This document shows, piece after piece, positions 32,190 through 36,983 of a stretch of 64,000 nt of DNA. The translations under genes and the position numbers were made by a program. The notes under the pieces were generated by a model. The model made no database searches. It had not been told where the DNA came from and saw nothing but the letters and a program-made list of their open reading frames with translations. The stretch spans positions 8,875 through 72,874 of the forward strand of contig CAYFQP010000003.1 in assembly GCA_964345375.1 (NCBI GenBank), in the 5' to 3' direction. This DNA is from an uncultured Gammaproteobacteria bacterium (GTDB lineage: Bacteria; Patescibacteriota; Microgenomatia; CAYFQP01). How positions within the stretch are numbered: the first letter of the stretch is position 1; the number at the start of each line of letters is the position of its first letter.

Positions 32190-32270
32190 GATTTTGGAAG
32201 ACAATTAAATCAGCCCCATTGCTTTTTTTGCTTCTCGAAGTGTTTTCTTAGCAATCTTAGAGTAATATTC
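32190..32270 (-). repeat. diverged (~85% identity) duplicate of the trpS 3' end plus 3' flank (gene remnant)
   Basis: Encodes EYYSKIAKKTLREAKKAMGLI* vs trpS C-terminus YCSKIAKETLREAKKAMGLI*; matches 33278-33360. Confidence 0.7.
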
Positions 32271-32721
32271 AGCCCAAAATTTCTAGAGTCGCATCTAAAA
32301 ATTTCTTCGCTCCCTCGACTGCTTGTTTAGCTCCTTTCGCTGAATAGATACTTTCGTAATTAGCCGCTTCTCTTAAGCCCATCGCTTCGTCGAAATAATC
32401 GAGCATCCCAGAATCAAGTAATTTTTCTTTGACAAACAACTCTTTAATCGCTACCCCCAGACAATAATGGCCTCTTTCGCGATAGCCCCGTGAGTAAAGA
32501 AGAGCCCTAGCTGAATGGAAAAGAGAATAATAACCGGCGATGGTTGCATATTTAAAGTTTTTACTTCTCAAGAAATTGTTAGCGTTTTTTAAATCCCCTT
32601 TAGCAGCTTTAAGTTCAACCCTCATTTTATTCCTGGCCTTGGGAAACTTGATAATTTTTCTATTTTTCAAGCAATTTTCAAAATCTTTACTCATGTTGCT
32701 CCTCCCAAAGCACTTTACCAT
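32269..32721 (-). CDS. HEPN domain protein (toxin-like component of HEPN-MNT pair)
   Basis: R-x4-H HEPN motif (RERGHY), helical 150-aa protein overlapping MNT gene. Confidence 0.7.
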   Translation of the reverse strand: MVKCFGRSNMSKDFENCLKNRKIIKFPKARNKMRVELKAAKGDLKNANNFLRSKNFKYATIAGYYSLFHSARALLYSRGYRERGHYCLGVAIKELFVKEKLLDSGMLDYFDEAMGLREAANYESIYSAKGAKQAVEGAKKFLDATLEILG

Positions 32722-33232
32722 TGTTTATCTCTTCGTAAAAGACTGGATCTTTCTTCTTAAGTTCCATTAACTCTAGAAAGTTTTTAATCACTGGTTGAAT
32801 TTTTTGACCTATTTTGCTTTCTTTAATCATCTGCTGGACTTGTCTTTTCTCATTAGTGAGAATAAAGAGATCGAAGTCACTCTCGGCTGAATCTTTTCCC
32901 TGAGCGGCACTACCAAAAAGAATAACCTTCTGACTAACTTTCTGAAGTTTAGTAAGGAGAGGTCTTAACAATTCAATGGTGCGGACAACCTTCATTTGAG
33001 AAACCACGGGATCGTTTTGATCTAAAAAATAAACACTCAGGTTCCCCACCTTCACTTTCTCTATCTCCCTGTCAGCCACCTTTTTTTCTAGTATCTGATG
33101 ACAGGTAGAGATACTCGCACCTGAAGTTTGAGCAATTTGAGAAAGATACATCTTTTCACCCCCCACATTGTCTAAAAGAACATTCATTATCTTTTTTTCT
33201 GACCGCATGTTTCTTTTCATAGTTACATCCAC
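32687..33232 (-). CDS. minimal nucleotidyltransferase (MNT) with N-terminal wHTH (antitoxin-like partner of HEPN)
   Basis: LFGSAAQGKDSAESDFDLFILT (GS-x9-DxD), N-terminal HTH-like extension. Confidence 0.75.
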   Translation of the reverse strand: MDVTMKRNMRSEKKIMNVLLDNVGGEKMYLSQIAQTSGASISTCHQILEKKVADREIEKVKVGNLSVYFLDQNDPVVSQMKVVRTIELLRPLLTKLQKVSQKVILFGSAAQGKDSAESDFDLFILTNEKRQVQQMIKESKIGQKIQPVIKNFLELMELKKKDPVFYEEINNGKVLWEEQHE

Positions 33233-33295: not shown

Positions 33296-34279
33296 TTAAA
33301 TCAGCCCCATCGCTTTTTTGGCTTCTCGAAGAGTTTCTTTAGCGATCTTTGAACAGTACTTTCTCCCCTCCTCTAAAATTCTATCGACTTCTTGAGGGTG
33401 CTCTTCATAGTATTTTCCTCTCTTCTGAATTGGCTCTAATTCTTTATAAATCGCCTGGGCTAATTTCTCTTTGAGTTCAGAATACTTTATCCCTTTACCT
33501 AGATATTGCTTTTCGTAATCTTCCCGTCTTTCTTTGCTAATAAAAAGATCGACTAAAAGAAGCAAATTAGCCACCCCGCCTTCTTTGGGAATACTCTTTC
33601 CATGGCCAACATCAGTCGGCACCTTAGCTAGTTTTTCTTTGATGGTTTTCAAATCATCAGTTAAAAGAATATAGCTTCCTTTAACTGTTTTACTCATTTT
33701 GCCTTTTCCAGTTAAAGAAGGAATATTCTCTCCTTTAGTAGCAAATCTTTTAGTTTCAGGAAAAACAGGTTTAAACATCCGATTAAATCTTCGAGCGATT
33801 TCTCTAGTTACCTCAAGATGGGGCTCTTGGTCTATACCTACTGGCACTAATTCGGCTTTATAGATAAGAATGTCAGCCGCCATTAAGACTGGATAATATA
33901 AAAGGCCTAAATTAATGTATTTAGGAAATTGAGTTTTTCTATCTTTGTAAGTAGGTAATTGTTCTAACCGAGAAACCGGATAAATGGTACTGAAAAGATA
34001 GGCAAGTTCTAAATGTTCAGGGACTTGAGACTGGATCATTAAATGACATTTTTTGGGGTCTAAACCAGCGGCTAAATAATCCAAGACTACCTCCCGAATA
34101 TCTTGTTGAAGAGTCTTGGGTTCATAAGGAGTGGTAATCCCATGAAGATCGACCACGCCATAAATACAATCTAAATCCTTTCTTTCCTGAAGAGCAATAT
34201 AGCCTTTAACTCCACCTAAATAATTGCCGAGATGAAGTCGGCCTGTTGGTCTTGAACCTGAATAAACTCGTTTTTTCAT
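33296..34279 (-). CDS. trpS: tryptophan--tRNA ligase
   Basis: HLGNY (HIGH) and KMSKT class I motifs; ATG 4 nt after tRNA-Trp 3' end. Confidence 0.92.
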   Translation of the reverse strand: MKKRVYSGSRPTGRLHLGNYLGGVKGYIALQERKDLDCIYGVVDLHGITTPYEPKTLQQDIREVVLDYLAAGLDPKKCHLMIQSQVPEHLELAYLFSTIYPVSRLEQLPTYKDRKTQFPKYINLGLLYYPVLMAADILIYKAELVPVGIDQEPHLEVTREIARRFNRMFKPVFPETKRFATKGENIPSLTGKGKMSKTVKGSYILLTDDLKTIKEKLAKVPTDVGHGKSIPKEGGVANLLLLVDLFISKERREDYEKQYLGKGIKYSELKEKLAQAIYKELEPIQKRGKYYEEHPQEVDRILEEGRKYCSKIAKETLREAKKAMGLI

Positions 34280-34283
34280 TCTG

Positions 34284-34354
34284 CAGGGGCGGAGGGAATC
34301 GAACCCCCGATTAGTGTTTTGGAGACACTCGGTATACCACTTACCTACGCCCCT
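34284..34354 (-). tRNA. tRNA-Trp (anticodon CCA)
   Basis: Cloverleaf: acceptor AGGGGCG/CGCCCCT, anticodon loop CUCCAAA, T-loop TTCGATT; CCA not encoded. Confidence 0.8.
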
Positions 34355-34362
34355 TTGCCACC

Positions 34363-34388
34363 AAAAAACTCGCCCGCTCGGCGAGTTT
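34363..34388 (-). terminator. intrinsic terminator (attenuator terminator) upstream of tRNA-Trp
   Basis: Minus strand CUCGCCgagcgGGCGAG followed by U6 (plus-strand A363-368). Confidence 0.65.
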
Positions 34389-34514
34389 AACCAATCACAA
34401 AAACAAACTCCCGGCGGTTACCTGCCGTTAAGTTTGCGCCACCAAGCCTGAACCGTTGCTTTGATTTTAGCTATCATTAGCCTTATTTTAATACTTTCAA
34501 ATTAAACTTGTCAA
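34389..34514 (-). promoter_or_regulatory. promoter (TTGACA 34514-34509) plus leader with alternative antiterminator/terminator structures controlling tRNA-Trp-trpS
   Basis: TTGACA then A/T-rich -10 (TATTAA/TAAAAT); hairpin 34412-34427; segment 34405-34413 can pair with 34379-34388 (terminator 5' arm). Confidence 0.5.
34418..34477 (-). CDS. putative 19-aa leader peptide with tandem Trp codons (MIAKIKATVQAWWRKLNGR)
   Basis: ATG 34477, UGG UGG at 34444-34439, UAA at 34420-34418 inside hairpin; leaderless start right after -10. Confidence 0.5.
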   Translation of the reverse strand: MIAKIKATVQAWWRKLNGR

Positions 34515-34516
34515 GT

Positions 34517-34587
34517 GGCAGGGGTGGGAGTTGAACCCACGACCACTTGTTTATGAATCAAGCGCTCTACCGCTGAGCTACCCTGCC
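34517..34587 (-). tRNA. tRNA-Met elongator type (anticodon CAT; could alternatively be tRNA-Ile2 with lysidine)
   Basis: Cloverleaf with D-loop AGCGGTA, anticodon loop TTCATAA, fully paired G1-C72. Confidence 0.7.
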
Positions 34588-34660
34588 TGGTTGCGGGGCC
34601 AGGAGTTGAACCTGGTCTGTGAGATTATGAGCCTCACGTGCTACCCTACACTACCCCGCT
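34588..34660 (-). tRNA. initiator tRNA-fMet (anticodon CAT)
   Basis: Anticodon loop CUCAUAA; 3' end CCCCGCAACCA identical to E. coli tRNAfMet; position 1 (A) unpaired with A72. Confidence 0.65.
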
Positions 34661-34716
34661 TGTCTGAAGCTAATTCTAACAAATTTACCTTAAGATAGCA
34701 AACAAAAATAAGGGCC

Positions 34717-35073
34717 TTAATTAAACCCAAATAATCCCAACCACTGTTTCCAATTAGGTGTCTCTTCAGTCTCAACTCCTTTCTGACTTAACTCGATCAT
34801 CTCCTGAAAACCCTCTGGTAAAATTACGACTGTTTCTCCTTCTTTTGTTAGCCCTAGTTTTTCCCGCGCCTCTTTTTCTACAAATTCTTCTGATCGAACA
34901 TAATCTAGTTGCTCTTTTAAGGTTTGGGTTTCAACTTTTAATTTTTCAAGTTTAAGCTGTTCCTGTCCAATAATTTTTTCCTTCTGAATTAAATAAATTA
35001 TTCCTCTTGAGAGAGAAACTATAAGATAGAGACTAATAAAAATAACCAGCCCAGAAATAATTTTTTTTCTCAT
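34717..35073 (-). CDS. septum formation initiator family protein (FtsB/DivIC-like)
   Basis: N-terminal TM followed by coiled coil (LKLEKLKVETQTLKEQL). Confidence 0.55.
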   Translation of the reverse strand: MRKKIISGLVIFISLYLIVSLSRGIIYLIQKEKIIGQEQLKLEKLKVETQTLKEQLDYVRSEEFVEKEAREKLGLTKEGETVVILPEGFQEMIELSQKGVETEETPNWKQWLGLFGFN

Positions 35074-36911: not shown

Positions 36912-36983
36912 TGGGCCCGGAAGGAGTCGAACCTTCGTCTGGACTTTATAAGAATCCCATTCTCACCGTTGAACTACGGGCCC
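36912..36983 (-). tRNA. tRNA-Ile with anticodon UAU
   Basis: Acceptor GGGCCCG/CGGGCCC, anticodon stem GGATT/AGTCC, loop CTTATAA (34-36 = TAT), T-loop TTCGACT. Confidence 0.65.

Follow-up and report, generated by a model that had tools for sequence, protein, structure and literature searches.

How is a tryptophanyl-tRNA synthetase gene expressed when its start codon stands only a few nucleotides behind a tRNA gene? The question is raised by trpS and the adjoining tRNA-Trp gene in a 64,000-nt stretch of contig CAYFQP010000003.1 (assembly GCA_964345375.1; Patescibacteriota, Microgenomatia), the whole of which is referred to here as the window. An earlier note on this DNA had proposed that processing of the tRNA would leave trpS with a leaderless mRNA. 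After comparison with related loci, we consider it likely that the pair belongs to a compact autoregulatory operon of Microgenomates (Candidate Phyla Radiation (CPR)/Patescibacteria), in which an attenuator acts on tRNA-Trp, trpS is attached to the tRNA gene, and excision of the tRNA frees a leaderless trpS mRNA.

The tRNA-Trp gene (anticodon CCA) was detected with an Rfam score of 66.1 bits. Both the Rfam boundary and reading of the sequence place the discriminator G at 34284, where the earlier note had it; ARAGORN puts the end at 34283 because the adjoining C is counted in. Full CCA is not templated, and the trpS ATG at 34279-34277 follows the discriminator after exactly four nucleotides, 34283-34280 (...CCGCCCCTG-CAGA-ATGAAAAAACGA; in a longer excerpt, ...CCGCCCCUG-CAGA-AUGAAAAAACGA). 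This ATG is the first start codon following an in-frame stop, with no earlier one available. A start downstream of 34279, which the note had named as a way for its proposal to fail, is impossible because residue 3 of the encoded TrpRS aligns with residue 2 of solved TrpRS chains, e.g., 2EL7 and 1D2R; the HIGH motif begins at residue 16. Homologues of this protein are counted in thousands, the nearest named ones being from Patescibacteria, Microgenomates, and Shapirobacteria. Several of them are annotated as longer than 327 aa, possibly owing to extension of the open reading frames (ORFs) upstream into a tRNA.

The 12 nt before the trpS ATG consist of the G+C-rich acceptor strand plus CAGA (CGCCCCTGCAGA; positions -12 to -7 are CGCCCC) and contain neither a Shine-Dalgarno (SD)-like 4-mer nor a -10 hexamer, in agreement with the note, which had seen no room for an SD. 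A promoter within the tRNA, its other possible point of failure, was not found either: the promoter scan revealed no sigma-70-like site in the tRNA-Trp gene and spacer (34354-34280). Since no promoter or SD lies between or inside the two genes, their co-transcription, assumed in the note, is effectively forced, and it is close to certain from the sequence that both are transcribed from the leader promoter described below. The coordinates of all these features are collected in Table 1. A hairpin over the trpS AUG was also considered; it was weak, appeared not to be conserved when start regions of relatives were inspected by eye without folding, and was dropped.

Table 1. Features of the tRNA-Trp/trpS region, in window coordinates and in the order of transcription.
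Feature	Position	Strand	Details
Two tRNA(CAT) genes	34516..34660	-	directly upstream of the leader; 34660-34591 (CCA templated) and 34587-34516
Leader promoter, sigma-70 type	34485..34514	-	-35 TTGACA 34514-34509, 18-nt spacer, -10 TAAAAT 34490-34485; 11/12 match
Leader ORF	34418..34477	-	19 codons + stop, MIAKIKATVQAWWRKLNGR and stop; stop 34420-34418
Tandem Trp codons UGG UGG	34439..34444	-	codons 12-13; putative sensing codons; aligned by Rfam Trp_leader to the tandem Trp codons (WW) of E. coli type
Hairpin 1:2, predicted anti-antiterminator	34403..34437	-	-15.8 kcal/mol
Antiterminator 2:3, predicted	34379..34413	-	-10.9 kcal/mol
Intrinsic terminator 3:4, predicted	34363..34388	-	AAACUCGCC-GAGCG-GGCGAGUUU + U6; -14.3 kcal/mol
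tRNA-Trp	34284..34354	-	A1-U72, discriminator G73; C74 templated, C75 and A76 untemplated; ARAGORN and Rfam
Spacer CAGA, discriminator to trpS ATG	34280..34283	-	4 nt; proposed leader of the processed mRNA
trpS, tryptophanyl-tRNA synthetase	33296..34279	-	327 aa; no SD and no promoter of its own

The 161 nt between the second tRNA(CAT) gene (end at 34516) and tRNA-Trp, which the earlier note had passed over, hold a near-consensus promoter, a leader ORF, and a probable attenuator. Transcription is predicted to start at about 34478/34477, at the leader ATG itself (34477), which follows the -10 box by 7 nt. The 5' arm of hairpin 1:2 begins right after the tandem Trp codons, so named WW below, and the leader UAA falls in its loop region. 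Segment 2 (34413-34404, CGGGAGUUUG) can pair with segment 3 (34389-34379). The latter doubles as the 5' arm of the terminator, which consists of a 9-bp G+C-rich stem plus U6 and ends 8 nt before tRNA-Trp. The helices 1:2, 2:3, and 3:4 are mutually exclusive. A translatable leader ORF, clustered Trp codons, and a terminator before the regulated gene are thus all present, and the alternative helices would, on their pairing potential, favour the antiterminator upon a stall at WW. This geometry, as read from the sequence, corresponds to textbook ribosome-mediated attenuation. The leader is very probably a Trp-sensing attenuator, and we infer that it responds to Trp charging; the attenuator, not mere adjacency of the two genes, would then tie expression to the charging of tRNA-Trp. 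Transcription of the two tRNA(CAT) genes would continue into the leader and be halted by the attenuator terminator. The first of these tRNAs has an A1/A72 mismatch and a templated CCA that is joined directly to the second tRNA; the second, in turn, has its discriminator 1 nt ahead of the -35 box of the leader promoter.

Related loci (designated by L numbers) were taken from GTDB species genomes (80 loci among the matches listed, 12 of them close) and from metagenomes (80 loci with a TrpRS 64-86% identical to that of the window); the latter supplied the informative loci. In 24 of them there is a leader that starts with ATG, carries tandem UGG-UGG, and stops six codons later. The ATG lies exactly 33 nt before TGGTGG and the stop 18 nt after it, giving 19 codons; the leader of L130 has 18 codons with WW at codons 11-12. 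WW itself is invariant in the window and all 24 relatives. In 14 of 14 aligned leaders a -10 box stands 7-10 nt before the ATG, and wherever the upstream sequence of a relative was read, TTGACA with TAAAAT or TAGAAT stood at the corresponding positions. Given this spacing, the leader mRNA should be leaderless or nearly so, and the leader ORF is probably translated in that form. The 11 N-terminal codons diverge, with 431 non-synonymous versus 137 synonymous pairwise codon differences, and no purifying selection on the peptide was seen in its N-terminal half. Such divergence, with frame, length, WW, and stop retained, fits a sensor peptide and not a functional protein.

All three helices can be formed in each of the 14 aligned leaders. 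Hairpin 1:2 has predicted energies of -12 to -22 kcal/mol, and its alignment cells are paired in 88% of cases versus 25-47% in slid registers; the corresponding values for antiterminator 2:3 are -9 to -14 kcal/mol and 89% versus 22-56%. The terminator 3:4 has 94% of cells paired and an invariant core; over the three helices, slid registers gave 22-56%. The leader is in every case followed by tRNA-Trp, which starts 60-75 nt after the leader stop except in a few loci with insertions. trpS, by contrast, lies 136 to 1847 nt away from the leader, and other genes follow tRNA-Trp in L085, L092, L097/98, and L113. Since tRNA-Trp is the invariant partner and trpS the variable one, the attenuator would primarily regulate the tRNA-Trp gene, with trpS co-regulated where it adjoins this gene, as it does in the window.

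Small ORFs that resemble GIY-YIG proteins by eye (MYY(A/V)YILQS...) are inserted in L094 (2161-2473) and L135 (1989-2423, and 1670-1890 on the minus strand). One interrupts the gap from tRNA-Trp to trpS in L094, and one that from the attenuator terminator to tRNA-Trp in L135. In L135 there is also a group I intron match nearby (74.8 bits).

With the discriminator of relatives set by acceptor-stem pairing, tight tRNA-trpS junctions were found in 18 distinct related loci, the window being an additional one. The spacer is 3 nt long in 3, 4 nt in 11, and 5 nt in 4 of these. tRNA-Trp adjoins trpS in 12 loci, at 3 nt (1 locus), 4 nt (8 loci, as in the window), or 5 nt (3 loci), with spacers such as CAT, CAAA, CTAG, CCAA, CCAG, CCGA, CTAA, CCAAA, and CCAAG. 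In the other 6 (L008, L105, L116, L117, L122, and L123) the neighbour is tRNA-Met, again at 3-5 nt (CCG, CTC, CTTC, CTTT, CCCAT); L008 is a Woesebacteria genome with a TrpRS 56% identical to that of the window. No spacers of 0-2 or 6-7 nt occurred among the loci compared, the next values being 8, 13, 18, 23, and 31 nt. Recurrence at 3-5 nt only, in 18 distinct loci, argues that the spacing exceeds chance. An SD-like 4-mer or a -10 hexamer 5-12 nt upstream of trpS is present at none of the 18 tight junctions, and one or the other at 38 of the 55 other distinct trpS upstream contexts: an SD in 21 (18 strong, e.g., GAAAGGAGGTGAnnnnATG), a -10 box 5-12 nt before the ATG in 20, and both in 3. Where trpS is of the promoter type, the -10 box stands 9-11 nt before the ATG, as in the order tRNA-Met, terminator, TGTTAGAAT, 10 nt, ATG. 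trpS initiation in this clade thus appears to follow one of three layouts, namely an SD, a leaderless-type promoter, or an adjoining tRNA, which is what would be expected if the tRNA 3' end replaces the transcription start in setting a very short 5' end.

Two points of the earlier note were not borne out or went too far. It had held that 3' processing must be RNase Z-like since CCA is not encoded; full CCA is templated in 6 of the 12 distinct tRNA-Trp junctions of relatives (G-CCA-A/AA/AG/G-ATG) with the spacing unchanged, so that what is conserved is the 3-5 nt spacing, not CCA-lessness. It had also stressed a physical tie between the cognate tRNA and its synthetase; the cognate relation does not fix the junction, as tRNA-Met genes adjoin trpS likewise in six loci of sister lineages.

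A leader of four nucleotides presupposes a host that can use it. We defined a -10-like hexamer by at least 5/6 matches, with A2 and T6 required, ending 5-12 nt before the first ATG. Such a box was present at 23 of 63 long ORFs of the window versus 4.7% of all ATGs, so that the window-wide pattern of -10 boxes close to ATGs described in the earlier note stands. In the histogram of distances from -10 box to ATG, maxima at 6-9 and 11 nt stand out from an otherwise flat background. The other genes, many of which closely trail the preceding one, show a peak of SD-like 4-mers at 7-10 nt and SDs of the GGAGG type. If transcription starts 7 nt after the -10 box, the observed spacings equal leaders of about 0-5 nt. 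Leaderless mRNAs therefore seem to be the rule for promoter-proximal genes of this genome, and leaderless initiation appears, from promoter spacing, to serve about a third of its genes. By the same measure a 4-nt leader (3 nt if the cut is made after C74) is apparently inside the working range of the host.

Together, these data suggest a unit in the order promoter, leaderless 19-codon ORF with tandem Trp codons, three-segment attenuator, tRNA-Trp, 4 nt, trpS. Transcription would begin at or next to the leader AUG, where a ribosome would load directly. When Trp-tRNA-Trp is plentiful, the ribosome would reach the UAA in hairpin 1:2 and mask segment 2, the terminator 3:4 would form, and transcription would end 8 nt before the tRNA. 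When charged tRNA-Trp is scarce, the ribosome would stall at UGG-UGG and cover segment 1, segment 2 would pair with the 5' arm of the terminator, and RNA polymerase would enter tRNA-Trp and trpS. As trpS lacks its own promoter and SD, it would be made from the read-through transcript only. The steps up to this point are drawn from the architecture of the sequence and its comparison among loci. RNase P would then cut the 5' end of the tRNA, and an endonucleolytic cut would follow at or just after the discriminator, C74, or CCA, leaving a trpS mRNA with a leader of at most 5 nt for translation by the leaderless pathway. We infer both this cleavage site and the leaderless translation of trpS. A functional tRNA needs its 3' end within 0-3 nt of 34284, so the tRNA would necessarily be severed from trpS.

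Several observations weigh against this reading. In some relatives tRNA-Gly stands 13-18 nt, or tRNA-Trp 8 nt, upstream of trpS with no SD or promoter; this clade may therefore also be able to start translation without an SD on a 5' end that is short yet not leaderless. CCA blocks RNase Z in B. subtilis-type systems, and half of the tRNA-Trp junctions template CCA, so a different or atypical nuclease may act there. A scan of the window for the HxHxDH motif of RNase Z gave a single match, a 204-aa generic MBL protein (Lactamase_B). Covariation in the attenuator is weak, with two-sided changes in three pairs, all in helix 1:2, and none in 2:3 or 3:4. Because the RNA 3' of WW is highly conserved, the case for the helices rests on pairing potential and canonical placement; covariation statistics are uninformative for the terminator and antiterminator, which vary too little. 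The first of these points also favours an explanation by compaction, in which trpS is co-transcribed and started by SD-independent internal initiation at the A-rich region (AUGAAAAAACG), whether or not the tRNA is removed, and the 4-nt spacer is plain genome streamlining. CPR genomes are compact, the trpS start region is A-rich in all relatives, and the tRNA-Gly and 8-nt tRNA-Trp loci just named have neither an SD nor a -10 box. We nevertheless regard compaction as a rather unlikely explanation. Against it, the spacers of 18 distinct loci, with one of two different tRNAs, are all grouped at 3-5 nt and none was of 0-2 or 6-7 nt, and at larger spacing trpS nearly always gains a strong SD or a leaderless-type promoter. 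Moreover, judging from ribosome structure, a tRNA that is folded only 4 nt away from the P-site codon would be expected to collide with the mRNA exit path of the 30S subunit and so bar its binding, which favours translation dependent on processing.

It is also conceivable, although we think it improbable, that each read-through transcript yields either mature tRNA-Trp or translatable trpS mRNA and never both; on the tRNA route, a downstream endonucleolytic cut would be followed by 3'-to-5' exonucleolytic trimming that destroys the trpS 5' end. In E. coli-type systems, tRNAs with an encoded CCA are matured at the 3' side mainly by exonucleases, and the templated CCA in half of the tRNA-Trp junctions of relatives speaks for this possibility. 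It leaves unexplained, however, the 3-5 nt spacer and the absence of SD and promoter at abutted loci only, and transcripts controlled by an attenuator would be wasted. It seems very improbable that trpS transcription starts separately, within the tRNA gene or at its end, through an internal promoter or an alternative sigma factor, and gives a primary leaderless transcript outside the control of the attenuator. Leaderless primary transcripts appear common in the genome, but the acceptor stem and the rest of the tRNA offered no sigma-70-like site, -10-like hexamers were absent from all 18 tight junctions, and the tRNA 3' halves vary by locus with no conserved non-tRNA motif. We give as little credence to the idea that the leader peptide is a coincidental ORF and the hairpin a mere terminator of the tRNA-Met operon. 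A terminator here would stop read-through from tRNA-Met as well, and both the weak covariation of the helices and a Trp_leader score under the Rfam gathering threshold are in its favour. Against it, length, start, WW, and stop positions are kept in 24 loci despite divergent N-terminal codons, the unit is found without a preceding tRNA-Met (e.g., L095, L099, L128), and the positions of the three mutually exclusive helices are those known from textbook attenuators.

Further observations concern tRNA ends and short tRNA-ORF junctions in this clade. Across 116 distinct tRNA genes of CPR loci and the window, the base 3' of the discriminator is C in 111; the five exceptions probably reflect a mis-set discriminator in the tRNA with a 1:72 mismatch. 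Full CCA right after the assigned discriminator was found in only 25 of the 116. The nearly constant templating of C74 hints at a clade-specific rule of 3' processing or CCA completion. In L012, tRNA-Leu is followed after 8 nt by a 559-aa ORF, and in L137 and L144, tRNA-Pro(CGG) is followed after 9-11 nt by a 575-aa ORF; one of these ORFs has an RNase J-like N-terminus (IIPLGGLEEVGRN). Short tRNA-ORF junctions, with 8-11 nt between discriminator and ORF in these three loci, are therefore not specific to trpS. ORFs of about 220-235 aa with an N-terminal helix-turn-helix (HTH) occur at L116:1744-2427 (Pfam HTH_7 and HTH_23), L123:1750-2454, and L155:1731-2390. Each runs up to the tRNA that adjoins, or stands 31 nt from, trpS, ending either within the 5' end of this tRNA or just ahead of it, so that HTH ORF, tRNA, and trpS run on without spacers; the ORF could be a tRNA-associated mobile or homing-type gene. 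Short repeat-like insertions (GAACCTTGCC...GGCAAGAACCTT and similar) split otherwise conserved spacers between tRNA-Gly and trpS in L137 and L144 and, in the leader of L088, between the stop codon and segment 2. In appearance they resemble a miniature mobile element.

Near the operon, the window contains two more features. Directly downstream of trpS (32269-33232, minus strand) lies a toxin-antitoxin-like pair of overlapping ORFs, a nucleotidyltransferase (Polbeta/NTP_transf_2) and a HEPN protein, with its own promoter TTGACT-17-TATAAT at 33276-33248. A tRNA-Ile with anticodon UAU (TAT in the gene) is encoded at 36912-36983 on the minus strand and also in L008 and L110. tRNA-Ile with a UAU anticodon is an uncommon bacterial way to read AUA. 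A 292-aa ORF with no Pfam match begins 30 nt downstream of it.

If the autoregulatory operon operates as proposed, it would be the first case found of classical attenuation directly targeting a tRNA gene, closing a homeostatic loop on charged tRNA-Trp, and the first bacterial analogue found of mitochondrial tRNA punctuation yielding a leaderless mRNA. In our literature search we found no description of a leaderless mRNA arising by tRNA punctuation in bacteria, none of leaderless mRNAs in CPR, and none of a tRNA gene as the direct target of an attenuator, although such absence is not proof. There is a substantial chance that two aspects, the autoregulated tRNA gene and the processing-generated leaderless mRNA, are new in bacteria. 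That both hold together, i.e., mitochondria-like punctuation in a bacterium and a tRNA-Trp gene autoregulated by a leader-peptide attenuator, with the synthetase as an attached passenger, we propose tentatively, giving it somewhat less than an even chance. The operon would add attenuators, T-box-like leaders, and widespread leaderless promoters to the regulatory biology of CPR/Patescibacteria, which are almost uncharacterised at the RNA level. These organisms are probably Trp auxotrophs, for which capture of scarce Trp matters. The whole system is small, about 1.2 kb, and the tRNA-trpS junction gives gene callers a concrete start rule.

Among known systems, trpL of the E. coli type (RF00513) agrees with the window in that CGC follows UGG-UGG, a stop is reached after a few more codons, and the terminator has a U-run. 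Rfam Trp_leader aligned over its full length to 34450-34360 (30.8 bits, E=3e-4 in a search of 701 nt). Membership in RF00513 was not accepted, as the scores of the window (30.8 bits) and of L093, L095, and L096 (26.4-27.3 bits) are all under the 41-bit gathering threshold. Unlike trpL, the window leader has 19 codons versus 14, and its targets are a tRNA and a synthetase gene in place of biosynthetic ones. Convergence is the most likely source of the resemblance. Attenuators have been predicted upstream of trpS and leuS in Streptomyces (Seliverstov et al. 2005, PMC1262725). Like these and the E. coli pheM-pheST attenuator, the window has a leader ORF with tandem cognate codons, helices 1:2, 2:3, and 3:4, an intrinsic terminator, and a synthetase as a regulated product. 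It differs from them in that the first gene after the terminator, and its sole invariant partner, is tRNA-Trp, that the leader ORF looks leaderless, that the host belongs to CPR, and that the SD-less trpS would depend on the tRNA junction.

T-box control of trpS in Firmicutes (RF00230) follows the same logic as the proposed operon, since charging of tRNA-Trp is sensed to control trpS. Unlike the T-box, which binds tRNA directly, sensing in the window is proposed to be done by the translating ribosome, and no RF00230 match was found in 34100-34800 at E<=10. Two relatives carry a T-box-like leader between tRNA-Trp and trpS, L128 (1103-1304; 56.9 bits, E 1e-10) and L107 (1633-1833; 64.9 bits, E 1e-12), both under the gathering score of 93. 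These leaders have a promoter and a terminator; their stem I is very short, with a UGG-A loop, and their motif AAAGGUGGCACCGCG has a bulge, UGGC, whose complement is the GCCA end of tRNA-Trp. In L128, trpS thus has its own promoter and T-box-like leader, and the WW attenuator would control the tRNA only. A different structured leader with a terminator stands upstream of tRNA-Trp in L152-L154 (about 450-680) and L133 (about 780-1005). This leader is similar in its 5' part to stem I of the L128 element (GAUCCGGUAGGUUGGAGCCGGGGAG). A T-box motif is absent from it, Rfam gave no match at E<=1, and it may be another regulator of the tRNA-Trp gene.

The closest counterpart of the junction itself is found in animal mitochondria, where excision of tRNAs by RNase P and RNase Z is described as releasing leaderless mRNAs (as cited in PMC4633059; PMC11112386). 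In both cases, as far as these citing accounts describe the mitochondrial one, a tRNA stands a few nucleotides from a start codon with no promoter or SD between them. Mitochondrial translation accepts the leaderless mRNAs by the same accounts, and promoter spacing suggests a similar capacity for the host considered here. Unlike that system, ours belongs to a bacterial chromosome with ordinary promoters elsewhere, concerns only some genes, and has a processing step that is predicted. A tRNA adjoining the start codon with neither promoter nor SD in between was found in the window and in 18 relatives, and among the sampled loci trpS is the consistent case of a gene so adjoined.

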